Position numbers and translations under genes: made by a program
In this document: positions 1 to 64,000 of the stretch, one piece after another
Position numbering within the stretch: the stretch's first letter is position 1
Layout of the letters: the number at the start of each line of letters is the position of its first letter
DNA from: Nitrospirota bacterium
GTDB lineage: Bacteria > Nitrospirota > Thermodesulfovibrionia > Thermodesulfovibrionales > Dissulfurispiraceae
Direction: 5' to 3'
Length of the DNA stretch: 64,000 nt
NCBI GenBank assembly: GCA_963710375.1
Contig: CAVPZX010000002.1
Location: 256,001 to 320,000 of the forward strand
Notes under the pieces: generated by a model
The model's database searches: none
What the model saw: only the letters and a program-made list of their open reading frames with translations
What the model was told of the DNA's origin: nothing

Positions 1-1239
1 GCCGCGAATTCCGGCCTCGGTGCGGAATTTCTCAAACCAGTGAATGGTGTTTTGAAAATACGCCGCTTCTGACCTTTCAATCACGTGGTCCTCCAGCCAG
101 ACCTGCAGGACGTGCCGGTCTTCGGCGTGGTTCAGGCCGTTAATAATATTGTCGTTTTGCAGTTGTACGCCGATGGTATTTTCCATATCGAATCCGCCCA
201 ACTTGCCAAGCCATGTATGGCTGGCATTAAGTGCGCTCGATATCCTTCTGTCCCACTGTTCAAATTGGTCGCCATGTACGGGATCAAACAGGAAATAGGT
301 AAAGTCGGAAAACAAAGTCATCCGCTTGTCGATAATATAGATATTGGCCTTGGTAACGTAACTCCCTTCGGTGTGCTCCCAGGCAGCGGAAAGACTATAG
401 CGGCGGGTCCAGGTGAAGTCACTAGGGTCAAGTGTGCCGAAACGCGATATCTGGCCGTCATCCACAGCGCGTTCGGCAGTCTGGTTAGTAGCGTCTCCCT
501 GGCTTGTATATGCCATTGCGGTGACGTTAAAGTGGTCTTTACCTTCCCCCATGCTGTAACGCAACACCCCGTTCCATTTCCGGAAGTCTGCTTTATTGCT
601 CCACGGACCGTCGTTGTGTTCATATTCAAAAGCGCCGAGCAGGTTTCCGCCCCCCAGCTTTATTGAGTCGGCAAGGAATTCGCGCTCGAAGCCGTATGTT
701 CCCACGGTTGTACTTGCAATCCCCTGCTTAAGCGTATCCGCATAACTGATATCTATCGCACCTACGGATGAAAAATCACCGTAACCTGCGTAGTAGGGTC
801 CCTTCCGGTACTGTATATAGTTGATCAGTTCGGGTATCATAAAATTCGTATCGGAATATCCCTGGCCGTGCGCATTAGTGCGTTCATTGATATCCATACC
901 GTCAACGGTAATCCTCAGGTCCGTGCCATGATCGAGATTGACGCCCCTCAGAAAATATTGATTGGCCTTGCCTTCTCCACTGTGCTGGCTGACTATCAGA
1001 CCCGGAGTTACTTCCAGTAATTCTCCATTACGGTATGCAGGACGGGATTCAATTTGTTCTTGGAGGATAGTGCCCTCATTTGCAGAATCCGTGGTGCCGA
1101 CCAGGTTTTCGGTCATGTCTGTCACCTCCACAACATCCAGGGTCTGGATGCCTCCGGCATAGGCCGAACCTGTAAAAAAAGCCACAAAAAGCATCATAAA
1201 GACACTGAGCATTCCTGATGCAAAAGTCTTTACTCTCAA
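1..1239 (-). CDS. TonB-dependent outer-membrane receptor, N-terminal part (runs off the left edge)
   Basis: Manual translation from TTG at 1239 (RBS GGAGA) gives a signal peptide and the plug-domain motif QHSGEGKANQYFLRGVNLDHGTD; absent from the ORF track, consistent with the frame running off the window edge. Confidence 0.9.
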   Translation of the reverse strand, partial: MRVKTFASGMLSVFMMLFVAFFTGSAYAGGIQTLDVVEVTDMTENLVGTTDSANEGTILQEQIESRPAYRNGELLEVTPGLIVSQHSGEGKANQYFLRGVNLDHGTDLRITVDGMDINERTNAHGQGYSDTNFMIPELINYIQYRKGPYYAGYGDFSSVGAIDISYADTLKQGIASTTVGTYGFEREFLADSIKLGGGNLLGAFEYEHNDGPWSNKADFRKWNGVLRYSMGEGKDHFNVTAMAYTSQGDATNQTAERAVDDGQISRFGTLDPSDFTWTRRYSLSAAWEHTEGSYVTKANIYIIDKRMTLFSDFTYFLFDPVHGDQFEQWDRRISSALNASHTWLGKLGGFDMENTIGVQLQNDNIINGLNHAEDRHVLQVWLEDHVIERSEAAYFQNTIHWFEKFRTEAGIRG

Positions 1240-1261
1240 ACGCTTTCTCCTTTCAAAGAAA

Positions 1262-1375
1262 TAAAAAAGCCACTAAGGTTTTGTGCGCAGGCTGCTGCCT
1301 GCTACTGACCTTCGTGGCTTTTATTTTCCTGTTTACAGGTGAGGCGGAAATCCGGACTTCGTACCCGGAACCCTT
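1262..1375 (-). promoter_or_regulatory. Structured 5' leader / putative transcription attenuator of the TonB receptor
   Basis: Stem AAAGCCACGAAGG...CCTTAGTGGCTTT followed by a U-tract, enclosing hairpin GCAGGC-AGCA-GCCTGC, between promoter and RBS. Confidence 0.55.
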
Positions 1376-1385
1376 TAATGGCTCA

Positions 1386-1415
1386 ACTATAGCATTTCGA
1401 CAAATGCAGCGTCAA
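1386..1415 (-). promoter_or_regulatory. Sigma70-type promoter for the TonB receptor with a palindrome in the spacer
   Basis: TTGACG-18 nt-TATAGT with TG extension; GCATTT-N4-AAATGC inverted repeat at 1392-1407. Confidence 0.55.
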
Positions 1416-1444
1416 GATAACAAAAATGGCGGGAGTGGGTTGTA

Positions 1445-1472
1445 TTGACATGCTGAAATCTGTTGCTATAAT
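1445..1472 (+). promoter_or_regulatory. Consensus sigma70 promoter for the Met/His-rich protein
   Basis: TTGACA-16 nt-TATAAT with extended -10 TG. Confidence 0.7.
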
Positions 1473-1517
1473 TAAGATATCAATCTATCATCGAACATTT
1501 CCAAAGGAGGCAGCAAT

Positions 1518-2327
1518 ATGAAGAAGAAAATGCAGTTTTTTGGTGGAGTTTTTGTTTTGGTCTTTGCCCTGTCTTTTGTGATTTTCGGGTCAGCGAGCGC
1601 CGCAGATGTGAAACAAATGCAAAGCAACAGCTATATAGCAATGCATGAGGTTGGCGCCGAAGAAATGAAAGACATGAGCGACATGAAGGGCATGAATATG
1701 GATATGGATATGCACCATATGCACATAATGATGGATCACGGCCTTTCTATGGTCACTGAAGGGTCAAGTCTGGTTATGCTTGGCGAGATGAAAATGGCGC
1801 CGTCGCTTGACCCGATGACCATGGAGCACGGCCGCCACATGATGGCCGAAGGCAAGAAGCTGATAGAACATGAAATGAGCGGGTCTATGATGAAAAGCAT
1901 GCACAAGGCAGGTCATGGTAATGACCCGCTCATGAAGTACACCCACGAACTGGGCAACGCCATGATGGACTATGTGAATATTGTCGATAGCATGGGCATG
2001 AAAGGCGAAATGGCCGATGATATGATGACGATGCACCATATGCATATACTGATCAACCATGCCGTGAATATGGCTGTTGAGGGCGCCAATTTGGTAATGC
2101 TTGGACAGATGCACATGGCAAAGGGCGTAGATAAGGGTTCGGTGGAGCACGGGAAAATGATGATATCCGATGCGGATAAGCTTTTGAGTGAAGTCATGAA
2201 AGGCAAAGCTATGATGGAAATGCACGAAAAAGGTATCAAGATGAACAACGAAATGATGGCTTATACACACAAGCTGGGCGCAGCGGCGCAGAAGCTTGTT
2301 GATCTTCTTTCCGGGATGCCAAAGTAA
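1518..2327 (+). CDS. Exported Met/His-rich protein with an internal duplication, putative metal-binding
   Basis: RBS AAGGAGG; signal peptide ending ASA-A; two copies of MHHMHI..H...EG..LVMLG.M.MA...EHG..M...YTH.LG. Confidence 0.85.
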   Translation: MKKKMQFFGGVFVLVFALSFVIFGSASAADVKQMQSNSYIAMHEVGAEEMKDMSDMKGMNMDMDMHHMHIMMDHGLSMVTEGSSLVMLGEMKMAPSLDPMTMEHGRHMMAEGKKLIEHEMSGSMMKSMHKAGHGNDPLMKYTHELGNAMMDYVNIVDSMGMKGEMADDMMTMHHMHILINHAVNMAVEGANLVMLGQMHMAKGVDKGSVEHGKMMISDADKLLSEVMKGKAMMEMHEKGIKMNNEMMAYTHKLGAAAQKLVDLLSGMPK

Positions 2328-8243: not shown

Positions 8244-9302
8244 TCACTTGCAAGTGTCTGTACGAGTTGCAAACATTTTCGACATTGCCCCTTTTTCTAT
8301 GAGTGACTGTGATGGCGATTTTTGGCCAAGACTTTTGTGTGGTCGAATGCAGTTATAGAAGACAAGATACTCAGCCAATCGCATTCTAAAAAGTTTGATG
8401 TCATGTATTGAGTCGAGGTTTTGAGCGACGAACTCATCTTTAATTGTTCTGTTGTATCGTTCAATGAAACTATTTATCTTAGGGCAACGAGGATAACTAA
8501 AGAGATGCGGTATTTTGTGTTTTTGGAGTTCCTTATCAAAGTCACCGAGGAATTCAGAGCCGTTATCACTTTGCACAGACAGCACTGGGAGCGGGCAAAC
8601 AAGCATAAGGCGTTTCAGGAAGTCTGTTGCCGAGCGGCTTGAAAGCGAGCCGTAGCAACCAGTCAGGGCAAACTTAGTCACAACATCTATTGCTGAAATC
8701 AGGTACCGGGTAACACCGGCATCGTGAACAACTGAACTATCGGCCAGAAGGTAACCTGGTTCAAGGGGTTTGGGTGATTTTTTTACACGTTGTCTTTTGC
8801 ATTTCTCAGGCTGTTTTCTGTCGGGGTTGTGGTACACTCTGCCTGGGCTGCCCTGGGAAAAGAACTTGTATCTCTTGATGATCTTGCCTATTTTAGACTC
8901 AGAGATAGTAGTAATGCCCATTTCTTTGCAATATGCATCCAGCAAAGGTTTAAGTTTCTCTTTGCCGATTCTTCCGTACTTGCGTCTGTAGGCACGAATG
9001 AACTCTACGATACGCTGATCAACAGACATGGTCCTTACGTTATAGGGTTTTGTACTGACAGGCACAAGAGCTTCCAGCCTTCCTCCAGACTGCATGAGCT
9101 TTTTCTTCCAGGTATAAATCACCTTGCGATCTGCTCCAAAAGCTTCTTTAGTGGCTGCCTCACCATATTGATCGTAGAACTGAATGATCTTATGTCGCTG
9201 TTTTGCCACTTCGTTTTTATCAAACCTCTGAAGACCCCTGAGCATATCCTGTAGCCTCCTCCAGCCACGTATCCAGCTCGAAGATAGGATATGCCCGTGC
9301 AT
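8244..9302 (-). CDS. DDE (rve integrase core) transposase
   Basis: N-terminal HTH, SVQSDNGSEF, IERYNRTIKDEF, YNCIRPHKSL; stop lies just outside the IR. Confidence 0.9.
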   Translation of the reverse strand: MHGHILSSSWIRGWRRLQDMLRGLQRFDKNEVAKQRHKIIQFYDQYGEAATKEAFGADRKVIYTWKKKLMQSGGRLEALVPVSTKPYNVRTMSVDQRIVEFIRAYRRKYGRIGKEKLKPLLDAYCKEMGITTISESKIGKIIKRYKFFSQGSPGRVYHNPDRKQPEKCKRQRVKKSPKPLEPGYLLADSSVVHDAGVTRYLISAIDVVTKFALTGCYGSLSSRSATDFLKRLMLVCPLPVLSVQSDNGSEFLGDFDKELQKHKIPHLFSYPRCPKINSFIERYNRTIKDEFVAQNLDSIHDIKLFRMRLAEYLVFYNCIRPHKSLGQKSPSQSLIEKGAMSKMFATRTDTCK

Positions 9303-9692: not shown

Positions 9693-11771
9693 CTACTTAA
9701 GCAAAGGCACGATCAGCAGTGCCACTATGTTGATAACCTTGATCATCGGGTTGATCGCCGGACCGGCTGTATCCTTGTATGGATCGCCTACAGTGTCACC
9801 AGTGACAGAGGCTTTGTGTCCGTCGCTCCCCTTCTTATGAACTACGCCCTTGTCGTCGGTAACGCCATTTTCAAAAGACTTTTTGGCGTTGTCCCAGGCT
9901 CCGCCGCCGCTTGTCATGGCAATAGCCTGGAAGAGTCCGGTCAGGATACTTCCGATAAGAACACCACCGAGAGCTTCCTTGCCAAGGAGAAGACCTACAA
10001 CAATCGGAACAACAACAGGAATAAGTGCAGGTACCATCATCTGTTTTATAGCGCCTTTTGTGACGATGTCAACACACTTTCCGTATTCCGGCTTCGCCTT
10101 GTATTCCATAATGCCGGGGATCTCCCTGAACTGCCTTCTCACCTCTTCAACAATACTGCCCGCTGCCTTTCCAACTGCTTCCATAAGGAGTGAGCCGTAG
10201 TAATAAGGAAGAAGTCCGCCGATAAAAAGACCGGCCAGGACCATCGGGTTTGAAAGGTCAAAATAAAGCTGTGTACTAAAGGACCTCGAATACTCCGCAA
10301 AGAGGACCAGGGCTGCAAGAGCTGCTGAGCCGATAGCATAACCCTTTGTAACAGCCTTTGTTGTGTTTCCGACTGCATCCAATGGATCTGTGATGTTACG
10401 GATCTCTTCAGGCAGTCCTGCCATTTCAGCTATACCGCCTGCATTGTCAGTTATCGGTCCATACGAGTCAATCGCAACAACAATCCCTGTCATTGAAAGC
10501 ATCGAAACCGCTGACAGGGCTATAGCAAAAAGACCGCCCGCTGCGTCCCCATTAAATCCACCGCCCAACGAATACGCGCCAAGGATTGAAGCGACGATAA
10601 CGACAACAGGAGCACCTGTGGACTTCATGCTGACTGCTAATCCTGCGATTACGTTAGTGCCGTGGCCGGTCAGACTGGCTTTGGCAATATGTTTTACAGG
10701 TGGATATTCCGAGGAAGTAAAATACTCGGTTATAGCCACAATCAGGCCTGTCAATGCAAGGCCGATAAGCGCCATAAGAAAAACATTCATCTGCGTAAAT
10801 GACGGATGAGCCATCAGTGAAGCCTGAACTGATGCTCCTTTCAGGAACTGGCCTGTCACAAGATAAAATGTTACTGCCGCAAGAATGCCTGCAACAGCAA
10901 GCCCCTTATACAGGGCGCCCATGATATACTGGCTTTTACCGAGCCTCACTGCAAATGTTCCGATAATGGAAGCGATAATCGATATTCCGCCGAGGAGCAA
11001 TGGGAATTCAACCCATGGGCTTTCAACGCCAAAAACCGTCTTGGCAAGGAGCATTGCCGCAACGAGTGTAACCGTGTATGTTTCATAAAGGTCAGCAGCC
11101 ATTCCTGCACAGTCCCCGACGTTGTCGCCAACGTTGTCTGCGATAACAGCAGGGTTCCTGGGATCATCCTCGGGTATTCCTGCCTCGACCTTACCAACAA
11201 GGTCGGCGCCTACGTCAGCAGCCTTAGTGTAGATACCGCCTGCTATACGCGCAAACACGCTCATGAGCGAGCATCCGAACCCGAGACCAATGAGGGCACG
11301 AAATGCCATCTCAGGATCAGCCTGCTTCGCGGTATAATAAAAACACGAAAGTCCTATGATTCCGAGACCAACGACCATAACGCCTGTCACTGAGCCGCCC
11401 TTAAATGCAAGGCCGAGGGCAGCCTGAAGACCCTTGTGCGCCGCCTGTGTGGTGCGGACGTTTGCCCTGACAGTAACCCACATGCCGACAAAACCTGCGA
11501 GTGCTGAACCTACGGTGCCGATGACAAAACCAATAGCCGTCCATGTGCCAAACCCAAACGCTGCGATAAGTATAACGAGAATGACTGCAACCATCGCTAC
11601 AGTTTTATATTCGCGTGCAAGGAACGCATATGCTCCTTCTTTCACCGCATTAGAGATATCCTGCATCTTGGCACTTCCAGCATCCTGCTTCGATACCCAC
11701 ATTGCGGTCATAACAGCGTATATCACGCCTACGATTCCGCAACAAATGGCAAAAAGTATTGTTCCGCTCAT
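9693..11771 (-). CDS. hppA: Membrane-bound H+-translocating pyrophosphatase, K+-independent type
   Basis: [26 protein letters not shown] (Lys marks K+ independence), [10 protein letters not shown]. Confidence 0.95.
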
Positions 11772-11910
11772 TAACCCTCTCCTCCTTTTAAAATATCTTT
11801 ACAATTAAACCGTTGTTAAAATGAAGCCTTTCCGCTGATACGCTCTATGAATCTATCCGCATGGACTGGTACCCTGTCCGTTACTCAACTTTCACCTCCC
11901 TCTTCACAAG

Positions 11911-13059
11911 TTATTCCCTTCCGGCTTGCCGCGCGAAAACCATGGCCGCAGCCCTGTATACCATGTGTGCCATTTTCGAAAACGGCGCATAAGCAAAAAG
12001 AAAAAAGATAAAAACCAGGTGGATGAAGTATACAATGTAAGCGAGCGGGTCAACATCCGCAAGCCGCAAGACTTCCGATAAAATACCCGTGACCACAATC
12101 GTAAAGATGACCACGATAAAGAGCCAGTCAAAATAACTTCCGCCGCCTGCCTTTTCGGCATTCTTCATACGGTTAGCAGTAACGTACAGCATTCCGAGCA
12201 GCAGGGCAATCGCGCTTGCGTTGCCGACGATCTTCATCGGATCATATAGTGGATAGGGCGTTTCGCCAAAGTGAAAAAGAGACGTCGGCTGGATGCCGAA
12301 GATTTCATGCCCGTAAAGATACAGGACGCCCCATCCCGTCGTTATGGCAAGGCCTATAAACGCATAAAAAACCAGCATGTGCGCTGTCGAGCGGTCTTTT
12401 GTGACATTGCACTTCTGGAATCTCTCGTGGGACAATATATCGACGATCGTCGCTTTTAAGCTGTCCATTACACTGCCCTTCAACTGAGCACCGGCGCACA
12501 TATCCGTCCAGTAGTTTTTTATACCCATAAAAAAGGATATTACGGCAAATACGCTCGCCAGTATAAAAACAGTATCTATGTACGGTACCGGTATTAAATG
12601 AGAGTAAACGATCCCCCCGTCATCGCCTCTCGGGATGTTCGAAAAATGACCAAGCGCACCGATGATCCCGAGGAAAATAAGGACCGGCAGTGCAAACAGC
12701 AGGATAACATATTTCGGATCCGCAGTCATATTGGCCAATGCGCCGGGCACCGAATAATTCTTGATCGTCAGCTTCCTTATGGCGCCCAGCACCTCTCCGG
12801 GCTTTGCGCCCCTCGGGCAGTAGGCAGTGCAATCGCTGCACTGGTGGCAGAGCCAGACATCGGGGTTGCTTATCAGCTTGTCTTTCATTCCCCACTGCGC
12901 ATAAATCATCTCTTTCCTCGGGAAAGGTTTTTCATCGGGGGTGACATTGCATACGACAGTGCAAGTGGAGCACTGGTAGCATTTTTTCAACGACTCTCCC
13001 CCCGACGCAATAATATCTTTCACAAAATTTAAATCAGGCTTTATTAGTTGCTCCGGCAT
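11911..13059 (-). CDS. qmoC: Quinone-interacting membrane oxidoreductase subunit C
   Basis: Two CxxCxxCxxxC clusters followed by a membrane cytochrome b domain ending SKMAHMVYR. Confidence 0.93.
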   Translation of the reverse strand: MPEQLIKPDLNFVKDIIASGGESLKKCYQCSTCTVVCNVTPDEKPFPRKEMIYAQWGMKDKLISNPDVWLCHQCSDCTAYCPRGAKPGEVLGAIRKLTIKNYSVPGALANMTADPKYVILLFALPVLIFLGIIGALGHFSNIPRGDDGGIVYSHLIPVPYIDTVFILASVFAVISFFMGIKNYWTDMCAGAQLKGSVMDSLKATIVDILSHERFQKCNVTKDRSTAHMLVFYAFIGLAITTGWGVLYLYGHEIFGIQPTSLFHFGETPYPLYDPMKIVGNASAIALLLGMLYVTANRMKNAEKAGGGSYFDWLFIVVIFTIVVTGILSEVLRLADVDPLAYIVYFIHLVFIFFLFAYAPFSKMAHMVYRAAAMVFARQAGRE

Positions 13060-13070
13060 CCTTATACCTC

Positions 13071-15272
13071 CTACATTTTATACGGATTGGGACCAAATCC
13101 TTCCAATTTCTGAAGAAACTCATCCAATATTTGCGGTATCTTATGGTATTCCGAAATTGATACTTGCGTCATTTGGACCCTTCCAGACTCAAGCTTTAAT
13201 CTGTCCAGTGTTTCGGCGACCTTCGACAATCTGATTTTTGCCAGGTGGCTCCCCGTAGCCATATGACACTGGTAATCTTCGCCGTATTGACATCCCATAA
13301 GAAGCACGCCGTCGATACCCTTTGAAAGGGCATCCGCCACCCACACAAGGTTCATTGAACCTATGCACCTCAAAGGAACAACCCTCACGAATGGATTAAA
13401 TTGCAGGCGGTTGATTCCGGCCATATCCAGCGCCGGATAAGCGTCATTTTCACAGGCGAAAACTATGACTCTCGGCTTTTCGTCCTCTTCTCCTGGAACC
13501 TCTATATTCTTGACCATGTTCCCGATCATGTCAACCGAGTAGTTCTTGAAGCTGATAATCCTCTCAGGACAGGCGCCTAGGCAAACTGCACATCTTCTGC
13601 AGCGTGTCGGATTGTAAACCGGGTTTGCCTTCTCGTCTTCATTGATTGCGCCGAAGGGACATTCCTCTGTGCATCTCTTGCACTGCGTACATTTCTGCAT
13701 AAAAAAGTCGGCATAGGATATATCACCGACTCTCGGATGCACAGCCTCACCCCTCGATGTCAGCTCAATACACTGGATCGCTTTCAGGGCTGCACCGGCA
13801 GCATCTTCCTTGGCGGATGTTATATCCAGAGGCGCCCTGACAGTGCCGGCCGAATATACACCGGTTCGTCGGGTTTCATAAGGAAAACAGATAAAGTTTG
13901 AATCAGGATAACCGTGCGCAAGAGAAGGCAGCTCTCCTCCCTGCCTGTACCCGAGATTTAAGGTATTTGTTTCGATCATTACATAAGGGATAAACTCGTC
14001 CCCAGGTTTTACGCCGGGAGGCAGTATCTCTTCGCCTAATCCCGTGACCGGAACCATGCCTGTGGCAAGCACAACAAGGTCCGCTTCCACACTGATCTTT
14101 TCACCAACAAGAGTATTTTCCACACTGACTATCAGGTTCTGATTATCACCTTCCGTAATTCCTTTAACTTCTCCCTTGGTCAAGAACACCCCCGGATCAT
14201 TCTGCATGCTCTTATAGAAGTATTCATAATGACCGGGCGTTCTCATGTCTTTGTAGAATATAAAGACCTTTGCATCGGGGTCCTGGTTCCTCACATACTT
14301 TGCCTGTTTAAGAGATTCGACACAGCATGTTGCCGAACAGTACGGTAAATGATTCTCATCCCTCTGTCCGGCACACTGTATAAAGGCGACGCTCTTAGCG
14401 GGTTTCCCGTCCGAAGGACGAAGAATTGCTCCCTTCAGGGCCAGTCCTTCCATCATGTAATTAGTAATGACATTGGGATATTTACCAAAACCAAGATGGT
14501 CGATTTTTGTTGCATCATAGGGTACCGTACCGACAGCTTCAACTACAGCTCCCGCTCTGAGAGTCTCGGAATTACCGTTCTGTTTTACCGTAACACTATA
14601 AATGCCCGGAGCCCCGTCTATCTTTTCCACCTGCGCAGACGTAAATATTTTAACCTTCGGATTCTGCCGGACTTCTTTGATCAAATCACTGATCTCCGGC
14701 TCTTCCAGATTTTCGTAAGGAGGCTTCGTGGGCGCCTGTTTGTAAATATTGGCCATCCAGCCGCCGAGAGAATCGCTCTTTTCCACCAGAAAGACATCAT
14801 AACCTGCCTTGGCTGCCTGATTGGCAGCAGTAATTCCCGAGAGACCTCCGCCGACAACCAGCACATTTCTGCAGAGGTCCTCCACCTTATAAGGTTCAGG
14901 AGCCTCAATCTTGTTCATTTTCAAGATACCCATCCTGATGTAGTCTTCAGCCATCATCTGCGTATCTTCATCATTCGGTTTGTGCGTCCAGACAACCTGC
15001 TCCCTGAGATTGACCCTTTCCACAAGGGGGATACCCAGGTCAAAGGTGTCATAATGCACACGCGGGGAACAGGCAGCGATTATCACTGCGTTGACGCCTT
15101 CGGCAGCCATATCATTCTTAATGAAGTCCACCCCTTCCTTGAGACAAAGAGACGGATGTTCTTTGACAACAGGCGCCTTCATTTTTACGGCAACCTTCTT
15201 TAAACCCTCTATATCGAGTGCCTTGCCAATCTCGCAATCAGTGCAAATATAAACGCCTATCTTTTTATCCAT
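13071..15272 (-). CDS. qmoB: QmoB (HdrA-like FAD/Fe-S protein with MvhD domain)
   Basis: MDKKIGVYIC start at 15272, FICFPYETRRTG, CTQCKRCTEECP, C-terminal CENDAYPALD MvhD domain. Confidence 0.95.
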   Translation of the reverse strand: MDKKIGVYICTDCEIGKALDIEGLKKVAVKMKAPVVKEHPSLCLKEGVDFIKNDMAAEGVNAVIIAACSPRVHYDTFDLGIPLVERVNLREQVVWTHKPNDEDTQMMAEDYIRMGILKMNKIEAPEPYKVEDLCRNVLVVGGGLSGITAANQAAKAGYDVFLVEKSDSLGGWMANIYKQAPTKPPYENLEEPEISDLIKEVRQNPKVKIFTSAQVEKIDGAPGIYSVTVKQNGNSETLRAGAVVEAVGTVPYDATKIDHLGFGKYPNVITNYMMEGLALKGAILRPSDGKPAKSVAFIQCAGQRDENHLPYCSATCCVESLKQAKYVRNQDPDAKVFIFYKDMRTPGHYEYFYKSMQNDPGVFLTKGEVKGITEGDNQNLIVSVENTLVGEKISVEADLVVLATGMVPVTGLGEEILPPGVKPGDEFIPYVMIETNTLNLGYRQGGELPSLAHGYPDSNFICFPYETRRTGVYSAGTVRAPLDITSAKEDAAGAALKAIQCIELTSRGEAVHPRVGDISYADFFMQKCTQCKRCTEECPFGAINEDEKANPVYNPTRCRRCAVCLGACPERIISFKNYSVDMIGNMVKNIEVPGEEDEKPRVIVFACENDAYPALDMAGINRLQFNPFVRVVPLRCIGSMNLVWVADALSKGIDGVLLMGCQYGEDYQCHMATGSHLAKIRLSKVAETLDRLKLESGRVQMTQVSISEYHKIPQILDEFLQKLEGFGPNPYKM

Positions 15273-15276
15273 TGAT

Positions 15277-16539
15277 TTACCTCCCAGCCAATGATTGAAT
15301 AGCTTTGAGTGCTGCCGCTGTACTGTACTGCACGCTTGAATAAACATCAAGCGGTTTTAATGCGCAACCGGAAGCATACATCCCGCTCGCTCCAGTATTG
15401 GATGCAATAAAACCATCCGTATCGTATGCTATGTCTGCCGGGATTTTGCTGTTCCGTGTGTTTGGCGCCATTCCAGCGGCGAGCACAACGAGGTCGGCTT
15501 CTTCATGAAGCTTTTGATTGGAAAGCGTATCTTCAGCAGTCACAGTAAGATTCTTTGTTTCAGGGTCTTCCTTGATATCGGCAACCTTTCCCTTGATGAA
15601 TCTTATCTTCTCATCTTTTTGCGCCTTAAGATACATCTTCTCATATCGCCCCGGTGTCCGAATATCGATATAGAAAATAGTCACAAGGGCATCCGGATAC
15701 TGTTCACGAACATAGGAAGCCTGTTTTATTGAAGCAAGGCAGCAAACGTAAGAGCAGTATGGGAGATGGTTCTCATCGCGGGACCCGGCACATTGCACAA
15801 AGACAACCTTCGAGACCTCTTTCCCATCAGACGGTCGAACGATCTTGCCGTTAGTCGGACCGCTCTGAGCCGCCAACCTTTCCATCATCATATTGGTAAT
15901 AACATTTTGATACTTGCCGAACCCGATATTATCGATTTGGGAAGCATCATAAGGACTCCATCCGGTGGCCCAGACAATCGATCCCACCTTCAGGGAAAGA
16001 CTTTGGGTTGTCATATCAAGATCAATCGCATTGTATGTGCAGGCCTCTTTACACTTTGCACACCCGGCTTTTTTACAGTATTTATCATCAATCACATATC
16101 TCATCGGAAAGGAAAAATCATGGGGAAGATAAACAGCCTTTGTCTTATCCATTGCAAAGTTGAAATCATTCGGTCTTTCAAAAGGACAAACATCAACGCA
16201 TGCCCTGCAGGCAGTACAATTTTCGTTCACATATCTTGGATTAAGCTTTACCGTGACATCGAAATCTCCCTCTGAACCGGAAACCTTTTCGACTTCTGCC
16301 ATGGTATAAAATTTAATCCTCGGGTTGTTCTTAATTCTTCTGAAATTAATTTCCAGTCCGCAGTTGGGCGGGCACAACTTTGGGAAGTACTTGTTAAGCT
16401 GGGTTACCCTTCCGCCAAGATATGGGTTCTTCTCAACAATAATTACCTCATGCCCAACTTCTGCTGCTTCAAGGGCGGTAGATATCCCGCTGATACCCCC
16501 ACCTACAACCAGGATACTCTTGGTATTTTCTGCTGCCAT
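15277..16539 (-). CDS. qmoA: QmoA (HdrA-like flavoprotein)
   Basis: GGGISG, KYFPKLCPPNCGLE, QCAGSRDENHLPYCS. Confidence 0.95.
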   Translation of the reverse strand: MAAENTKSILVVGGGISGISTALEAAEVGHEVIIVEKNPYLGGRVTQLNKYFPKLCPPNCGLEINFRRIKNNPRIKFYTMAEVEKVSGSEGDFDVTVKLNPRYVNENCTACRACVDVCPFERPNDFNFAMDKTKAVYLPHDFSFPMRYVIDDKYCKKAGCAKCKEACTYNAIDLDMTTQSLSLKVGSIVWATGWSPYDASQIDNIGFGKYQNVITNMMMERLAAQSGPTNGKIVRPSDGKEVSKVVFVQCAGSRDENHLPYCSYVCCLASIKQASYVREQYPDALVTIFYIDIRTPGRYEKMYLKAQKDEKIRFIKGKVADIKEDPETKNLTVTAEDTLSNQKLHEEADLVVLAAGMAPNTRNSKIPADIAYDTDGFIASNTGASGMYASGCALKPLDVYSSVQYSTAAALKAIQSLAGR

Positions 16540-16610
16540 GCTGTTCCTCCGTGGACTTATGTAGTTAAATGACTAAGGCTAACAAAAAATAAAACATCAC
16601 ATACAATATA

Positions 16611-17126
16611 TCAATCACATTTCGAGGGACATTTGATTGCCTCAAATGCGAGAAAGATTCTCTTTTCTTTTTCGATCCTCTTTTCCTGAAGTTTCTTAAA
16701 CTCAATTTGTTTAACAGCTTCCAAGGACTTCTCCTTTGAGGGTATTGATTCCAACCCATTGCCGATAACCTCACCGGAAACAGTCTCAAGGACCTCTGCA
16801 TCCTCTCCATTGGTCACCACTGCAAATGGAATCTGATAATCATCGAGTATCCTTGCACAGGACACAACCTCTGTCTCCCTCGATACCAAAGAGCCGCGGG
16901 CACATCTCATAAGCATGAATCTTTTCCCTTCAACACTTACGATAAGATCCGTCTTCGGTCTATATACTTCTTCTTCAATAACAATTTCAAAGTCTCTGTC
17001 AACCTCGATATCCTGTCTTGAATATCCCTTCTTATCAATCAACAGACGTTCTATTTTCTGTCTTATCCTTTCATCATCGGTATCGGGAAATAACCGGCCG
17101 GTTATATAATCACAAATTTCCGACAT
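16611..17126 (-). CDS. Stand-alone type I restriction enzyme R N-terminal (HSDR_N-like) domain protein
   Basis: DDERIRQ..KGYSRQDIEV, DLIV, FAVVTNG; C-terminal CPSKC. Confidence 0.75.
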   Translation of the reverse strand: MSEICDYITGRLFPDTDDERIRQKIERLLIDKKGYSRQDIEVDRDFEIVIEEEVYRPKTDLIVSVEGKRFMLMRCARGSLVSRETEVVSCARILDDYQIPFAVVTNGEDAEVLETVSGEVIGNGLESIPSKEKSLEAVKQIEFKKLQEKRIEKEKRIFLAFEAIKCPSKCD

Positions 17127-17134
17127 TAGCTGTT

Positions 17135-17908
17135 TTATTTCTTATATTCTTCCTTAACCTTCAATGTGTTCTCAAGCATCAGGACATACTTCAGGTATTT
17201 GAACCCGAACTTCATCAACGCAATCTCGTCAGTCCCTATTTTTTCGACTTCTTCAGCATCAATAATATCGAGAAGACGGCTCTCAAAAACAAATTTTCTA
17301 AATCTGTCAAGATCATAACTGACCATATAAATCAGGGCCTGACTCTTCGGATCAAGTCTGTCTTGCCCCTGGGCGTCCCTTCTCAGCTGAATCTCCTTCC
17401 ATTCCCTGTTTATATCGTCATAAAGGTTAACCCCCTGATCAACCCTCCATGTTCCAATTGTCCACTCTTTTTCTTCGTTATAGCCCAGACATCCCGGTTC
17501 CCTGATAAAGAAAAAAAATTCCTCCTTTACATGGTCCGTCTCTTTTCCGCTTATCATTATACCCTGACCCACGGGATAGTATCGACAGGTGGAAGGCCTG
17601 TCTTCATAAATACTGCAACCCGAAGGTGCCACAAAAGGACACTTCCCTTCATTATCATCGATCATCTTGAGCATTGCATATGGATGTGAAGATTTTTCAT
17701 CGTAATGAGTATACGTGTATTTCTCAAGGAATTCTTCTGAAGAAATTCCCAGACTCTTCTTCATCCTTAAGATGTCATAAGGTGTCAAAATTATATCTAC
17801 GCGCGTACAGCATTTATTAAAACACCCGATATCTTTATGACACCTGAACTTGAATTTGGAATCCCGTGTGCGCTCAATCGGTTCTACAAACTGTGTGCCT
17901 GAAAACAT
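17135..17908 (-). CDS. YkgJ family cysteine-cluster (CxxCxxCC-type) protein
   Basis: CHKDIGCFNKCC, CPFV, CSIYEDRPSTCRYYP. Confidence 0.9.
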   Translation of the reverse strand: MFSGTQFVEPIERTRDSKFKFRCHKDIGCFNKCCTRVDIILTPYDILRMKKSLGISSEEFLEKYTYTHYDEKSSHPYAMLKMIDDNEGKCPFVAPSGCSIYEDRPSTCRYYPVGQGIMISGKETDHVKEEFFFFIREPGCLGYNEEKEWTIGTWRVDQGVNLYDDINREWKEIQLRRDAQGQDRLDPKSQALIYMVSYDLDRFRKFVFESRLLDIIDAEEVEKIGTDEIALMKFGFKYLKYVLMLENTLKVKEEYKK

Positions 17909-17943
17909 TGTCTATCCTTTCTGCCTCGATCTCACTTCAGTTC

Positions 17944-18729
17944 TTACCTCTTAACCCGCAAGAGCTTATCCATTTCCGCATCTTTGAGTTTCAGGACGCC
18001 TTCCGAAAACAAATTGAACCTCACCCATCTATAGCCGAAATTTAAAATTTCTTCCAGGTCTTCCTCGTCTTCTCTTATCTTTTGTACAACCTCCTCCTCT
18101 ACATCATATATATCAAAGAACTTTGTTTTAAAAAGGAATGTTCTGAAATCATCCAGGTCATAACAGGCCATATAAATCAGCTTTGCTTTTCCCTGATCAA
18201 GCTTATTGCCTTTCTGAAAATAATCATGGAAAGTAATTTGCCTGTATGATTCATTCATCATGTCATATATGTCAATACCCTGGTCTTTCTTCCATTCCTC
18301 GATTGTCCATTGTTTTCCCTCTTTTAATGCAAGGCATGAGGACTTTTCCTCTATTGAAAAACCATCTTCCTTCGGGGAAGCCGGGAATATCGGATACATC
18401 CTGCATGACCAGGGCCTGTCCCGGTATATCCCGCACCCATCAGGCGTAACAAAAGGGCAGTTCTTATTCTGATCCTCAAGCATCTTGAGCACCACCAAAG
18501 GTATCCCTTCATCTCCTAACAAAGCAACAGTATATCTTTTCAGGAACTCACCCGAAGATACTTCAAGTGACTCTCTCATCCTCAGGACGTCATAAGGTGT
18601 TAGAAAGATATTTACATCGCTGCAGCAGGTATTAAAACAGGAAAGACCTTTGTGGCATGAAAACTTGAATTTATCATCGACAGAAAGCCTTCGGTGCTTT
18701 TCGGCATATTCTTCATTCATAAACCACAT
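17944..18729 (-). CDS. YkgJ family cysteine-cluster protein, paralog of the neighbour
   Basis: CHKGLSCFNTCC, CPFV, CGIYRDRPWSCRMYP. Confidence 0.9.
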   Translation of the reverse strand: MWFMNEEYAEKHRRLSVDDKFKFSCHKGLSCFNTCCSDVNIFLTPYDVLRMRESLEVSSGEFLKRYTVALLGDEGIPLVVLKMLEDQNKNCPFVTPDGCGIYRDRPWSCRMYPIFPASPKEDGFSIEEKSSCLALKEGKQWTIEEWKKDQGIDIYDMMNESYRQITFHDYFQKGNKLDQGKAKLIYMACYDLDDFRTFLFKTKFFDIYDVEEEVVQKIREDEEDLEEILNFGYRWVRFNLFSEGVLKLKDAEMDKLLRVKR

Positions 18730-18750
18730 TCACTCCTTTTCTATCAGGCA

Positions 18751-18783
18751 GGGGGGCGACCTGAAAAAAGGTCGCTCCCCCCC
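18751..18783 (-). other. GC-rich hairpin between aprA and the YkgJ genes
   Basis: GGGGGGCGACC-TGAAAAAA-GGTCGCTCCCCCC; no clear U-tract on the minus strand. Confidence 0.55.
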
Positions 18784-18814
18784 ATAGATACAATACAGTA
18801 CCTATCAACTAAAA

Positions 18815-20731
18815 CTAAACAATAGGAATCATCGGCCTTTCGATAACCTTCCATTCCTTCTTATCGACATCATACTTCACGTTTACAAAGTGCTTCTGTC
18901 CCTCATCCAGTTTCAAATAATCGAACTTATAGTAATAGCCGGGCCATCTGGATTCTTTCCTCGCCAGCCTGGTTCTTACACATGATTCGCCGACCCAATA
19001 TCTGTGTATTGCCTCCCATGCCCTCATCAACTCATGGAGGTTCTTGGCGCCAATCTTCTCCGTATCCTCTCCGCAGAATGACAATTTCCAGATGGCGGCC
19101 TCGAGCATCTTGTCATTTGTCCCGTACAATGTCTCCCATCCGCCTGCATATTCTCCCATTATCTTCTGCAGCCTGAACAGGAAACCATTTGGAGAAATAA
19201 AGTTGGGATTCACATCCGTCGAGGTGGTAAATGCATATTTCTCTCTAAACAGGGTGAGCGGCCTGAACACTATTTCCTTGAGTTTTTTTATAGTGGCATC
19301 GGATACTGTCGGCGTATAGTCTTTATTGTCATTGGCAAACCTGATCGCAGACTTTGCACAAATCCTTCCCTGCGCATGAGAGCCGCTCGAGAACTTATGT
19401 GCACATGCCCCTACTCCGCAACCCGATGTAAATAAACCCTTGACTGTCGTCATTAAGTTATATTTGACAGGGAATGCATCCTTGTATTCTGCCGGCATAA
19501 GATCTTCCGCACCGCAAACCCATGCGCCGGTTGAACTGGCATGAGAACCAATGAAGACAGAATCCGACAACTGAAGCTCCATAGGTTTTTCCAACGGGTC
19601 GATATTATGGGCAGCCCAGTTTGTAGCGCCTGCTATTGTCATATCGAGGAAGTCTTCCCACGCTTCTGACTCGTACTCTCTTATCTTCTTCTTAAGTTCC
19701 TTTGCATCCGTTATCTCCTTCTTGTACCTATCAACGACCCTGTTCGTATGCATAAGAAACGGCGTCTTGCCTTCCTTTGAGCAGAGTATCATCTCGTAGT
19801 TTCTCACAGGAGTCGGACAGGGCTTCGCCTTTGCATAGGGTGCCCACTTTGAGGTCTCGGAATCATACCCGCCGACATACGCCTCGTCATAGGCATTTGT
19901 TGCCGGCGTCTTAAAGAGCAGGAAGAACGTTCCGACAGGACCATATGAGTCCTTGAATCTCGGCGGGACAAAAGTGACATCCATCTGAGTAAGCTCACCG
20001 CCGGCCTGCAGTGTGAGTGCATAAGTCGATCCTCCGAGCCATGGCGGCATCCAGGACCTCCCAAAGCCTTCACCCTGAGACCTCGGCCTGAATACATGGA
20101 CGGCGCCGCCCAATATACAGATAACTACCTTTCCCTTGAAAACATAAAATTTGTCTTCCCTGACACTGAAACCAACCGCACCACATACTCTGTCAGGCTC
20201 TTTCTCGTCTTTGAGGAGGTGTGTTATGTAAACTCTTTCAATCAGCCGGCCCTTATCGCCGAGTGAGCCCAATGCATTCTTAGCCGCCTCAGCCACGATG
20301 ATCTTGTAGCTCTCGCCGGATATCATGACCTGCCATTCACCTGATTTTTTAAAATTCCCCGCCTCATCTTTCCATATGGGGAGTCCCCATTTTTCAAAGA
20401 GCTTAACCGACGAATCCACATGCCGTCCGACATCGAAGACGAGGTCTTGCCTTGCCAAACCCATCTGGTCGTTGGTCACATACTCGGCATACCTTGCCGG
20501 AGTGCTCTTATTCGCTGTAACCTTCCCGTCCAATCCCATATACGTATTAATGGCGGAAAGGCCCATGGCCACGGGACCGCTTCTGTCAATGGCAGCCTTC
20601 TCCACAAGTGTCACCCTCATACCAAGCGCCTTTGCCCAGTATGCAGCCTCAACTGCAGCGCCGCAGCCGGCCATTCCACCACCGAGTATCAACACATCGG
20701 TTTCAACAACTTCTGTTGGAATATCAGACAT
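18815..20731 (-). CDS. aprA: Adenylylsulfate reductase alpha subunit
   Basis: GGGMAGCG, RSGPVAMGLSAINTY, WQVMISGESYK, HKFSSGSH, ESRWPGYY. Confidence 0.96.
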   Translation of the reverse strand: MSDIPTEVVETDVLILGGGMAGCGAAVEAAYWAKALGMRVTLVEKAAIDRSGPVAMGLSAINTYMGLDGKVTANKSTPARYAEYVTNDQMGLARQDLVFDVGRHVDSSVKLFEKWGLPIWKDEAGNFKKSGEWQVMISGESYKIIVAEAAKNALGSLGDKGRLIERVYITHLLKDEKEPDRVCGAVGFSVREDKFYVFKGKVVICILGGAVHVFRPRSQGEGFGRSWMPPWLGGSTYALTLQAGGELTQMDVTFVPPRFKDSYGPVGTFFLLFKTPATNAYDEAYVGGYDSETSKWAPYAKAKPCPTPVRNYEMILCSKEGKTPFLMHTNRVVDRYKKEITDAKELKKKIREYESEAWEDFLDMTIAGATNWAAHNIDPLEKPMELQLSDSVFIGSHASSTGAWVCGAEDLMPAEYKDAFPVKYNLMTTVKGLFTSGCGVGACAHKFSSGSHAQGRICAKSAIRFANDNKDYTPTVSDATIKKLKEIVFRPLTLFREKYAFTTSTDVNPNFISPNGFLFRLQKIMGEYAGGWETLYGTNDKMLEAAIWKLSFCGEDTEKIGAKNLHELMRAWEAIHRYWVGESCVRTRLARKESRWPGYYYKFDYLKLDEGQKHFVNVKYDVDKKEWKVIERPMIPIV

Positions 20732-20746
20732 TTTCTTCCCCCTTTC

Positions 20747-21193
20747 CTATTTCTTAATTGTTGAGAGTTCAGTAACTCCCATTAAACTCGGCTCCCCGAG
20801 CATGAACTCATTATTCAAATCAGCCGCCTTTGCCGCGGGAAATCCCTCGTCTGCCTTTATCGAACCCTCCGGGGTGGTCCTGGTCGGATACTTAAACCTC
20901 TTTATCCTTCCGTCCCTGTATGTGATTGTCCACATGATGTCCTCAGTTCCTCTCAAAGGTGTTGATGCGGCGCCGAGAGGCATAAAGTCAGAATATCCCC
21001 TGACATCCATAGCCTGCTGCGGACATATCTTTACACAACAGTAGCATTCCCAGCAGTACATAGGCTCCTGGTTATATGCCTTCATTCTTTCTTTGTCCAG
21101 CGCCATCAGATCGTTGGGGCATATATACATGCATGCAGTCTTATCCTGCCCCTTGCAGCCGTCACATTTTTCAGTCATTACAAAACTCGGCAT
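20747..21193 (-). CDS. aprB: Adenylylsulfate reductase beta subunit
   Basis: MPSFV..EKCDGCKGQDKTACMYICPNDLM, CWECYCCVKICP. Confidence 0.96.
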   Translation of the reverse strand: MPSFVMTEKCDGCKGQDKTACMYICPNDLMALDKERMKAYNQEPMYCWECYCCVKICPQQAMDVRGYSDFMPLGAASTPLRGTEDIMWTITYRDGRIKRFKYPTRTTPEGSIKADEGFPAAKAADLNNEFMLGEPSLMGVTELSTIKK

Positions 21194-21300
21194 AACTAAA
21201 ACCTCCTTTGTTTTTTATTGATAATGCTTAACTCACCATCACTGCATAAACATGATGATCTTCCTTAAGTCCTTGTTGACACCCCCTTTCATTAAACTGC

Positions 21301-21374
21301 AGGTTAAGGTCAAGGTCGAGGTTGAGGTCAAAGGCATCTCATTCTTTACTTAACCTTTACCTCAACCTTTACCT
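21301..21374. repeat. Hexamer tandem-repeat hairpin between sat and aprB
   Basis: AGGTTA AGGTCA AGGTCG AGGTTG AGGTCA ... TAACCT TTACCT CAACCT TTACCT. Confidence 0.8.
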
Positions 21375-21379
21375 GATTC

Positions 21380-22588
21380 TTATTTTTTCTCCCCTTCCGC
21401 ATATTTGTGGAGTTTTATCTCTACCTTCTCGGTAAGGCCAGCATAGTATTCTCTGAGAATAGTGAGAACTTCCGGACGGCTGAACTTATGTGTAACTTCT
21501 TCGCCTTCCGAAAGCATCTTTCTCAGCTTAGTGCCGCTGAGGAGTATCCGATCATCTTTCCCATGCGGACAGGTCTTCATCGAGGCCATCCCTTCGCACT
21601 TATCGCAGTAGAAGGTCCAGTCGATGTTGAGTGGTTTGGTTTCGAGTGCGTCCTTGGGTATCTCATCAAAGATTTTCTGAGCATCGAACGGGCCATAATA
21701 CTCGCCCACGCCTGCATGGTCGCGACCGACGATCAGGTGACTGCAGCCGTAGTTCTGCCTGAAAACTGCGTGCAGAAGCGCTTCTCTCGGGCCTGCATAG
21801 CGCATATCGAGAGGATAGCCTCCCACCATGACAGTGTTCTTGACGAAATACTTCTCGACGAGCACGTCGATACATTTCTGGCGGACATCCGACGGGATAT
21901 CCCCTGGTTTAAGCTTGCCCAGAAGCATGTGGATGTAAACGCCATCGCACACTTCGACAGCGATTTTCGCTAGAAATTCGTGTGAACGGTGCATCGGATT
22001 TCTTGTCTGGAATGCGGCGACCCTGCTCCATTTATTTGTTTCGAACGCCTTTCTGGTTTCGGCAGGTCTCTGGTATATTGCAGGGTACTCTGTCGGGAAG
22101 GTCCCCTCACTGAGCACCTTCACCGGTCCAGCCAGGTTGGTGTCAGCCTGTGCCATGACCATTTTTACGCCAGGATGCTCGGTATCGGTGGTTCTGAACA
22201 CCTGTTTGCATTCGTAGTTTTTGTCAATCTTGTATGCCTCAGTGACCTTCATAGTAGCCATGATTTCGCCGAACTCTTCCGAATACAGAGCGATTTCGTC
22301 GCCTACTTTCACAGCTTCACTGGTGGAAACGGTGATTGGAATCGGCCAGAATGTGCCGTCGGCCATCTTGTATTCCGCGCACACGCCTTTCCAGTCTTTT
22401 TCACCCATAAAACCGGTAAGGGGTGTAAAACCGCCGATACCCATCATAATAAGGTCACCAGTTTCGCGCGAGGATATATTGATCTTCTTGAGCCCCGCAG
22501 CTCTTTTCTTCTCTGCTTCCAGCTCTTTGCCGGTAAGGAGAAGAGGTTTTAATTTTTTCTCTTTCCCGTGCGGATTCACTAATGCCAT
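21380..22588 (-). CDS. sat: Sulfate adenylyltransferase
   Basis: [33 protein letters not shown]-terminal zinc site, LSGTKLR. Confidence 0.97.
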
Positions 22589-22648
22589 CTTAAATGTCCT
22601 CCTATTTAGTGGTTTATATACCTTAACATTGTGTCAACTAGGAATCAC

Positions 22649-23296
22649 TTATTTAATTCCGAGGGCCCCGCAAACCTTTCCGAATATTTGATCGATGCTT
22701 CCAGTGCCGGGAACTGACTTCAAAATACCTTTTTTACCATAATAGTCTATGAGGGGTGCAGTCTGAGCGGTATAAACCTCAAGTCTCTTCTTGATCGTTT
22801 CTTCTTTATCATCATCCCTCTGGAAGAGTTCACCTCCGCATTTATCGCAGGTTTTATCTTTTGCCGGACGATTAAAATAGATGTTGTACATCTGACCGCA
22901 CGCCTTGCATGTCCTTCTGCCGGTAAGCCTTTTCATAAGATCCTCAAAGGGGACATCTACGCTGAGTGCAGCAGTAAGCGGCAGGGCTAAAGAAGACAGC
23001 ATTGCATCCAGCGCCTCCGCCTGTTTTGTATTCCTGGGAAAACCGTCCAGTATATACCCCTTTTTGCAGTCGTCCTTACCCAGTCTTTCCTTAACCATTC
23101 CCAGGACAACGCTGTCGGGAACGAGTTCACCTTTGTCCATGTGTGATTTGGCCTCCTTGCCAAGGGCAGAGCCTGTGGCCACCGCTGCTCTCAGTAGATC
23201 GCCAGTCGAAATCTGCGGGATGGGATATTTTTCGATGATTTTTTTTGCCTGGGTGCCCTTACCCGCTCCAGGGGCGCCGAGAAGTACTATTCTCAT
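22649..23296 (-). CDS. adk: Adenylate kinase
   Basis: GAPGAGKGTQ, LDGFPR, zinc-finger LID CKAC..CDKC. Confidence 0.96.
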   Translation of the reverse strand: MRIVLLGAPGAGKGTQAKKIIEKYPIPQISTGDLLRAAVATGSALGKEAKSHMDKGELVPDSVVLGMVKERLGKDDCKKGYILDGFPRNTKQAEALDAMLSSLALPLTAALSVDVPFEDLMKRLTGRRTCKACGQMYNIYFNRPAKDKTCDKCGGELFQRDDDKEETIKKRLEVYTAQTAPLIDYYGKKGILKSVPGTGSIDQIFGKVCGALGIK

Positions 23297-63644: not shown

Positions 63645-64000
63645 TTAAAACCCTAAATGCGGCTTTGCACCCTTTTCAATTTCACGGCGTGCAGCCATAT
63701 CCATAAGCACACGCTCGGTGCCGAACTTGCCTGGATCATACTTCTTCAGCTTGAGTTCCGCCCTTGCATTGTCTATGAAGTTAAGTGTCATATCAAGTAT
63801 CTTCTCAATGTTCGGTTCAAAGACAAAGCAGCCTTTGAATCTCTCCATCCATTGATTGGTCATCATGTCTGTAACTCCCTTGCCGGCAGCGAAGATGTTG
63901 TCGCCCCCGAATATGACCGGGCATCCCGAAGCAGCGCAATAAGTTGCAATGGCAACCGCCTTTTCCGACATCCACTCAGGCGCAATACCAACTGCAGGCA
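63645..64000 (-). CDS. cooS: Ni-containing carbon monoxide dehydrogenase catalytic subunit, C-terminal part
   Basis: AVGIAPEWMSEKAVAIATYCAASG, the CooS C-terminal signature; runs off the right edge. Confidence 0.85.
   Translation of the reverse strand, partial: PAVGIAPEWMSEKAVAIATYCAASGCPVIFGGDNIFAAGKGVTDMMTNQWMERFKGCFVFEPNIEKILDMTLNFIDNARAELKLKKYDPGKFGTERVLMDMAARREIEKGAKPHLGF

Follow-up and report, generated by a model that had tools for sequence, protein, structure and literature searches.

We analysed a window of 64,000 nucleotides from a Nitrospirota bacterium (GCA_963710375.1, contig CAVPZX010000002.1, positions 256,001–320,000; the host genome, G000 in our labels), at the 5′ end of which a TonB-dependent receptor gene and a gene for an exported protein rich in methionine and histidine, hereafter the Met/His protein, are read away from each other across a gap of 278 bp (Table 1). 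A sequence-only reading of this DNA had described the protein as 269 amino acids (aa) long with a signal peptide, about 50 Met, 19 His and no Cys, which proved accurate (Met 50, His 19, Cys 0). Its Met fraction is the highest in the host genome (18.6% versus a median of 2.6% over 2,786 open reading frames (ORFs) of at least 150 aa), and its N-terminus, read by eye, opens with basic residues, continues with a hydrophobic segment and has an ASA-A site at residues 26–29. The two helical repeats of about 100 aa described earlier were also found: residues 60–160 and 168–268 are identical at 42 of 100 positions, are helical in both structural models, and carry MHHMHI at residues 65–70 and 172–177. 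The second most Met-rich ORF of the host genome (12.5%) encodes a Spy/CpxP-like exported protein with a Met/His/Cys-rich tail and lies 7 kb away (G000:C2:250349-250981, + strand; L044:349-978).

The receptor gene extends beyond the window as far as position −881 (G000:C2:255119), with tonB behind it; its start codon is TTG where its orthologues have ATG. Both of the divergent sigma70 promoters that had been proposed were present, TTGACA-16-TATAAT before the Met/His gene (12/12 consensus matches) and TTGACG-18-TATAGT at 1415–1386 before the receptor gene (10/12). A promoter scan gave 7 sites in total against 4.1 ± 1.9 in shuffled sequence, which is not above chance, and support for the two promoters therefore comes from the retention of each in orthologues and not from the scan count. 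MerR-type promoters have a spacer of 19 nt, and control of the Met/His gene by CueR or another MerR-type regulator was dropped on account of its 16-nt spacer.

Table 1. Features of the receptor and Met/His genes, in window coordinates (+ forward strand, - reverse strand)
Feature	Position	Strand	Basis
First 413 codons (5′ part) of a 706-aa TonB-dependent receptor, likely Ni/Co	1..1239	-	Plug domain E 1e-12; homologue context
Receptor ribosome-binding site, just behind the U-tract	1245..1253	-	
Predicted intrinsic terminator: long stem (-30.3 kcal/mol) and U-tract	1258..1322	-	Variable stem pair kept in 39/40 copies
Conserved GCC-AYGAA-GGY element, 5′ arm of the terminator	1308..1318	-	
Upstream hairpin with ACGAA-containing loop	1351..1369	-	Like hairpin in 26/40 copies vs 6.3 in shuffles
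Sigma70-type receptor promoter	1386..1415	-	Kept upstream of unlinked orthologues
Junction of receptor unit and Met/His unit; matches neither orthologue set	1417..1443	.	
Consensus sigma70 promoter of the Met/His gene; 16-nt spacer, extended -10	1445..1472	+	Also in orthologues without upstream receptor
Met/His gene ribosome-binding site	1504..1510	+	
Gene for 269-aa Met/His-rich exported protein	1518..2327	+	ORF and translation
Predicted Sec signal peptide, residues 1-28	1518..1601	+	Read from sequence
Repeat 1, residues 60-160: three long helices and one short	1695..1997	+	Repeat alignment, model
Repeat 1 pairs M63-H67, H74-M78, H104-M108, M125-H129, M139-H143	1695..1997	+	
Repeat 2, residues 168-268; pairs M170-H174, H181-M185, H211-M215, M232-H236, M247-H251	2019..2321	+	

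Origin of the intergenic region

The gap had been taken for one shared control region of about 280 bp, a description that fits by position and not by history. Two loci with orthologues of the Met/His gene (L001, L003) align with the host genome through murJ and again from 1444/1445, at the −35 box of the Met/His gene, and the 3.8 kb that hold the receptor are absent from them (L148 and L149 align in the same way and were not counted again). Both genomes carry a receptor orthologue on another contig (88–91% identity), and such unlinked orthologues align through the leader to 1414–1416, at the receptor −35 box, and no further. Because the two orthologue sets stop at the −35 box of either promoter, the intergenic region reads as a fusion of two units: judged by these alignments, positions 1240–1416 travel with the receptor and 1445–1517 with the Met/His gene, with a joint of about 27 bp between the two.

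The surrounding murJ–dedA interval is variable. Among 10 same-genus genomes it holds the Met/His gene in three, the receptor in one and other genes in the rest, and murJ directly adjoins dedA in six genomes of the family; synteny across relatives, which had been proposed as a check on the pair, shows no conserved layout. A receptor was the divergent neighbour of the Met/His gene in none of the 43 loci of the Met/His family that we sampled. The same region also carries a 197-aa repetitive protein rich in Ala, Gly and Val and without an NCBIfam family (G000:C2:253703-254296, − strand, window −2297 to −1704; L044:3706-4296), which has two more copies in the host genome and is found at the murJ site in G202 and G643 as well.

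Family, fold and neighbourhood of the Met/His protein

A word-seeded search gave 219 relatives from 593 candidates and a profile search 171 representatives at 50% identity. The set of 269 proteins included 157 with two full repeats and 45 short ones with a single repeat, the latter being partly fragments and partly whole proteins of 130–150 aa with a signal peptide. The family was present in 34 of 301 genomes of the class, with further records from Desulfobacterota, Vicinamibacterales, Rhizobiaceae and Nitrococcus. Over 109 aligned members the medians were 42 Met, 18 His, 0 Cys and 0 Trp, the N-terminus was hydrophobic, and 105 members had the motif MxxHH. The earlier reader had recognised no named family, and neither did our searches: Pfam had none at E ≤ 1 and NCBIfam none, the PDB gave no sequence match to either the single sequence or the family profile, a plasmid search returned no match to the protein, and the ESM Atlas held only unnamed clusters (best 0.84, a lead at most). 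The Met/His protein therefore belongs to an uncharacterised family without a name in the libraries searched, and a literature search on methionine-rich periplasmic copper proteins in Thermodesulfovibrio gave, among the papers listed, no description of it and none that named the genus. One subgroup (P0099, P0105, P0110–P0112 and L106:7585-8334) has partly lost the first HHxH cluster and gained Trp and Phe, and one locus (L069; G083:C68:16682-17599) holds a tandem pair of single-repeat genes, likely the forerunner of the duplicated form.

The structure prediction that had been suggested gave a confident helical model, with a predicted local distance difference test score (pLDDT) of 84.6 for the whole chain and of 95.8 for the two-repeat core (predicted TM-score 0.92; three long helices and one short per repeat), and neither model had a Foldseek match at E ≤ 0.001. 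The top Foldseek TM-scores, up to 0.49 for the core and non-significant, were against PhoU proteins. In a wide VIA fold search, the best match was 3l39 (Z 14.6, root-mean-square deviation 3.9, 189 of 210 residues aligned, 11% identity), and the top ranks were PhoU-like bundles together with cytoplasmic domains of ALMT channels (ten matches at Z 11.8–14.6, the next at 9.3). A caution on this tool, which counts against the assignment, is that unrelated helical bundles can reach Z of about 13, close to our best value; because of this we predict a shared PhoU-like six-helix architecture only and claim no descent. CopM, Csp, ferritin-like and cytochrome folds were not among the best 50 VIA matches listed, which does not exclude these folds.

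Met and His stand in pairs one helical turn apart. Across 147 repeat units, Met/His pairs at i,i+4 numbered 612 versus 197 ± 11 in shuffles (3.11-fold), those at i,i+3 were 1.13-fold over shuffles, and, the units being kin, the excess shows conservation and not 147 independent events. Each of the five pairs per repeat is complete in 56–71% of the units aligned at its columns. The best-kept ligand-type residues are Met (82–85% at M78, M108, M125 and M139), and H66, H67, H69 and H74 are kept in 64–78% of units. Binding of metal by His and Met is established chemistry, Met suiting soft ions, and by this analogy the pairs would create several sites for soft metals with no need of cysteine. Predicted as a homodimer, a single-repeat relative scored 0.23 against a mark of 0.42, which is evidence neither way.

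To assign a metal we used the neighbourhoods of the 43 loci, in which, out of 504 neighbouring ORFs, 129 near ones and 150 of 226 further cluster representatives were run through Pfam and 40 proteins through NCBIfam; metals were counted by tblastn of all 43 loci with marker domains, excluding CCP_MauG. Pfam named CopC, CopD, NosL, YtkA, SCO1, multicopper oxidase, PCuAC and CCP_MauG genes around them. A copper marker was found in 24 of the 43 loci (18 of 30 among those of at least 11 kb), compared with 167 of 6,161 same-sized windows of the host genome (2.7%); nickel and zinc markers occurred in five loci each, and 17 had no marker. The next co-directional gene was of YtkA type, copC or a gene ahead of copCD in 11 of the 43, and in the host genome a heme-copper oxidase adjoins a SCO gene. 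Because copper genes flank 24 of the 43 loci, the Met/His protein likely buffers or hands on Cu(I), and from this context we favour Cu(I) as its main ligand, with some reserve. Several points weigh against that choice. No copper marker was seen in 19 of the 43 loci, including the closest orthologues and the present locus, nickel and zinc genes flank five loci each, and that YtkA- and NosL-like domains handle copper is taken from general background. The enrichment itself is overstated: its markers derive from the very loci tested, those loci are kin, and one genome served as the control. His-rich proteins also bind Ni, as has been said for CopM (PMC4335983, excerpt).

Two further patterns recur in these neighbourhoods. 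The order Met/His gene, double-YtkA gene and MauG/MbnH-like di-heme enzyme appears at L020:4464-6576, L022:6864-8990 and L025:6870-8971, and by sequence at L104, L108 and L109; such di-heme clusters sometimes include a fusion of YtkA and multicopper oxidase, and Pfam named no MbnP-like partner in them; the literature searched on such enzymes, YtkA and TonB-dependent receptors held no description of the arrangement. ORFs of about 95 aa with RPP/RAPP-like tails, in two families (12 and 4 of the 43 loci), head metal clusters (L002:4139-4426, L004:5493-5780, L012:3763-4044 and others; L011:7557-7877, L024:9270-9548) and are similar to leader peptides of CruR type (PMC9426467, excerpt).

The receptor and its leader

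The receptor had been read as metal-related, and its homologues indeed stand beside nickel genes. Orthologues occur in 13 of 301 genomes of the order; nikR lies directly before them in three genomes (G308, G178, G318), exbB-exbD-tonB-cbiM follows in the first two, and in locus L012 nikR heads exbB-exbD-tonB ahead of the receptor. Homologues with 40–46% identity were found in 54 plasmid records among the matches listed. All three that we inspected have nikR or a HoxN-type permease nearby and two lie beside hydrogenase genes: pHG1 of Cupriavidus necator (HoxN-type permease about 4.4 kb upstream, in what we take to be a hydrogenase context), pHCG3B of Afipia (hyp genes and a divergent nikR) and a Paraburkholderia plasmid (nikR, HoxN-type permease, receptor homologue). 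CooS is encoded twice in the host genome, which also has three [NiFe]-hydrogenase loci; the CooS gene that had been noted in the window is there, with only its last ~250 bases inside (63753–64000). Since the homologues' neighbours are nickel genes and the host has CooS and [NiFe]-hydrogenases, nickel or cobalt is quite probably the receptor's cargo, as far as context can tell. At G000:C2:576609-578041 (− strand), [NiFe]-hydrogenase large-subunit matches fall in two adjacent frames (profile positions 1–194 and 210–508), a split gene or a recoded stop.

Between its promoter and its start codon the receptor has a leader that folds at −49.6 kcal/mol (z −4.2; 0 of 200 shuffles as good) and ends in the predicted terminator. 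A search of 401 genomes of the phylum with the terminator pattern gave matches in 58, against one control match, and at least one of the pattern matches (L137) is no hairpin. Over 40 distinct leader copies, the pair kept at the variable stem position was C-G in 21, U-A in 15 and U-G in three. Behind the copies stand cbiM (two), TonB receptors, tonB-like genes, unnamed proteins and one HoxE/NuoE-like gene. By an alternative pairing, the conserved GCC-AYGAA-GGY element might form a 3-bp mini-hairpin incompatible with the terminator; telling against this, the mini-hairpin differs from the minimum-energy fold. No Rfam covariance model matched the intergenic region (best E 1.9, far below the gathering scores of NiCo, cobalamin and other models). 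The leader is real and appears in none of the libraries and papers that we searched; it may be listed in RNA-motif tables of supplements or of subscription papers. The literature searched held no description of such a nickel terminator leader or of DUF3842 (see below; the paper listed for it concerns Ralstonia), and PMC545781 (excerpt) gives NikR boxes and no such leader.

Some copies occur in tandem or stand back to back on opposite strands (L111:1501-1815; L131:1501-2225; L116, L122, L135, L136), and several have an extra GCC-AYGAA-like element between terminator and start codon. A second copy in the host genome, matching a looser pattern (G000:C3:238301-238347, + strand), directly follows a promoter and precedes a nikN/Q/O-like transporter set; the host cbiM/nikM genes are apart from that set (C2:128113, C2:897142).

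As for what reads the leader, we dropped NikR control of the receptor: no NikR was found in the host genome, by a search whose control responded in 6 of 14 cases, and the gap has no NikR half-site within one mismatch of the consensus in PMC545781 (excerpt). Among 18 receptor copies, 11 have the leader, four a NikR-like box, three neither and none both. NikR is found in none of the 58 leader genomes and DUF3842 in 56; within the order, NikR is in 20 genomes and DUF3842 in 91, never together. DUF3842 adjoins cooT in the host genome (G000:C2:568628-569210, − strand; L141/L142), and in genomes of family f30 it lies directly beside nikR (e.g., G419, G488, G631), a link to nickel that does not depend on the leader. 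That DUF3842, with CooT, reads the GAA hairpins is a tentative proposal; against it, the distribution of NikR and DUF3842 tracks families and not independent events, and some NikR genomes without the leader pattern have DUF3842 too. Three other candidates were set aside. CsrA, whose site is GGA, is encoded in the host genome but the loops are mostly GAA; compared with the guanidine-II riboswitch motif, a loop C varies to U; and by eye there is no ORF between promoter and terminator for a leader peptide of CruR type (PMC9426467, excerpt).

Competing explanations and known systems

Adjacency suggests a coupled module, in which the Met/His protein is the periplasmic acceptor of the metal that the receptor imports and the divergent layout co-regulates both genes. 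Some observations favour such a link and weigh against separate histories: a member of the receptor family stands no more than about 5 kb from the Met/His gene in three of the 43 loci and an unrelated receptor in eight more (directly upstream in L034, L041 and L042), both genes occur in 7 of 9 same-genus genomes tested for both, and G643 carries them 11 kb apart and has a tonB remnant at the same site, so that the receptor unit may predate the host genome there. Homologues of the two do, then, co-occur, but never divergently in the 43 loci; the genes share metal islands and their layout is not conserved. The occupancy of the site in relatives, the fusion of two promoters of separate history, a terminator leader on the receptor transcript only, and neighbourhoods that indicate different metals make the module improbable. 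What was proposed of an exported, helical protein with a metal-binding layout and metal-related neighbours stands, and its coupling to outer-membrane import does not. Because the murJ–dedA interval collects unrelated cargo, the back-to-back layout is likely to have arisen there, and we regard the chance juxtaposition of two units as highly probable.

Other roles for the Met/His protein are conceivable. A broad periplasmic sponge for Ni, Zn, Co and Cu, recruited to any metal island through its HHxH clusters, would suit the retained His residues and the loci with nickel genes (five), zinc genes (five), a P1B ATPase (one) or a CusA/CzcA pump (one), but Met residues are better kept than His, as expected for soft ions, and copper genes outnumber the others about 5:1; we consider this unlikely, if the strongest of the alternatives. 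An oxidant sink recycled by methionine sulfoxide reductase, similar to the Met-rich periplasmic peptide MrpX, would account for export and Met content, and an MsrA gene near L002 and peroxidase-like and thioredoxin-like genes in several loci would fit; yet the fixed i,i+4 pairs, the well-folded model, Msr genes in only one of the 43 loci and conserved His that a sink would not need render it very unlikely. Least probable of all appears heme binding by His and Met, or partnership with the di-heme enzyme often found behind the gene. The recurring gene order given above would suit it, and such enzymes occur with copper-binding partner proteins (PMC3621798, excerpt), but no CxxCH was seen in 109 members, the median Trp count is 0 whereas known partners are modified at Trp (PMC3621798, excerpt), no cytochrome was among the best 50 fold matches listed, and no such enzyme lies near the present locus.

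We therefore prefer two separately inherited units, a Cu(I)-binding Met/His protein and a Ni/Co receptor under a terminator switch, with a probability of roughly 55%. The protein, made from its own consensus promoter and exported, would fold into a PhoU-like six-helix bundle whose Met/His pairs hold several Cu(I) ions without cysteine, and may buffer copper or pass Cu(I) to partners of CopC/CopD, YtkA, SCO or NosL type. The receptor, with TonB, would carry nickel or cobalt across the outer membrane; its transcription would end in the leader by default and read through when a protein, possibly DUF3842 with CooT, grips the GAA hairpins under nickel shortage. The two units would have met at the murJ–dedA cargo site. 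A bolder joint proposal, of a new class of periplasmic multi-copper store on a PhoU-like bundle together with nickel-sensing antitermination by DUF3842 and CooT in place of NikR across most of an order, is doubtful. If it were true, some ten Met/His pairs would replace the acidic i,i+4 pairs of PhoU and hold many Cu(I) ions without cysteine, the store would feed copper enzymes of mostly anaerobic bacteria, and single-repeat relatives would act as dimers.

Few periplasmic copper buffers are known, and copper handling in sulfate-reducing Nitrospirota has been little studied; the Met/His family supplies one candidate that is small, free of Cys and well folded in its model, with ten residue pairs identified by name and a predicted fold for which Cu(I) binding is not known. 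The leader raises the question of how nickel uptake is controlled in hydrogenase- and carbon monoxide dehydrogenase (CODH)-rich bacteria without NikR, and the locus is a clean example of a divergent pair that looks co-regulated yet is fused from two promoters. Elsewhere, the window carries a sulfate-reduction cluster at 9693–23296 (pyrophosphatase, qmoABC, aprA, sat, adk). A transposase-like ORF, identified by eye, lies near it (8244–9302, − strand), and a 464-aa exported Cys-rich repeat protein is encoded at 28556–29950 (+ strand), with an MXAN_6577-like stretch just under the cut-off.

Among known systems, the receptor resembles the nickel TonB-dependent receptors of Bll6948 and Daro_3944 type, which were predicted from NikR/NiCoT context (listed in PMC11247825, excerpt). 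They share a plug and barrel and homologues beside nikR, HoxN-type permeases, cbiM/nikM and hydrogenase genes, a likeness judged here by context; those receptors have a NikR box, whereas the present one has neither NikR nor box and a terminator leader instead. The leader has the layout of the ANTAR targets of EutV, NasR and AmiR, two small hairpins of which the second overlaps the 5′ arm of a terminator (PMC3369931, excerpt). ANTAR leaders have six-base loops with A1 and G4 and a linker of 5–12 nt, in contrast to GAA loops and a 32-nt linker here, and no ANTAR gene turned up in the host genome in a search whose control was silent everywhere.

For the Met/His protein, CopM of Synechocystis is the nearest functional parallel, though of another family by profile. 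CopM binds Cu(I) tightly (PMC4335983, excerpt), carries MxxHH (PMC11836926, excerpt) and has been modelled as a four-helix bundle (10.1101/013581, excerpt). Like the Met/His protein it is exported, duplicated (two DUF305/PF03713 domains), Met/His-rich and near copper genes, and in both MxxHH opens the first helix. It has about half as many Met and His (23 and 8 versus 50 and 19), DUF305/PF03713 was found in none of the 109 Met/His members at E ≤ 0.5, and the Met/His model matches six-helix PhoU-like bundles best. The Ag(I)/Cu(I) sponges SilE and PcoE share export, absence of Cys, His/Met ligands and the expectation of several sites. SilE is disordered without metal (PMC5008109, excerpt) and uses HxxM/MxxH (PMC11904771, excerpt), a spacing of i,i+3, whereas the Met/His protein is enriched at i,i+4 and its model is well folded, possibly showing a metal-bound state; neither Pfam nor NCBIfam matched it to SilE or PcoE, and no sil or pco operon was seen. 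PhoU binds metal clusters through the i,i+4 motif E(D)xxxD (PMC5686610, excerpt), the same spacing as the Met/His pairs, compared here by spacing, and PhoU-like bundles (3l39, 1t72, 1xwm, 1sum) have, like the Met/His model, two three-helix repeats (Z 11.8–14.6). Identity is 6–11% and no PhoU profile matched; E(D)xxxD is absent from both repeats and numbers 70 versus 83 in shuffles over the 147 units; and PhoU is cytoplasmic with pst context, unlike the Met/His protein with its signal peptide and no pst context. By the features tested the Met/His protein is not a member of CopM, SilE or PhoU, and is likely a periplasmic Met/His metal buffer built on a different predicted fold.

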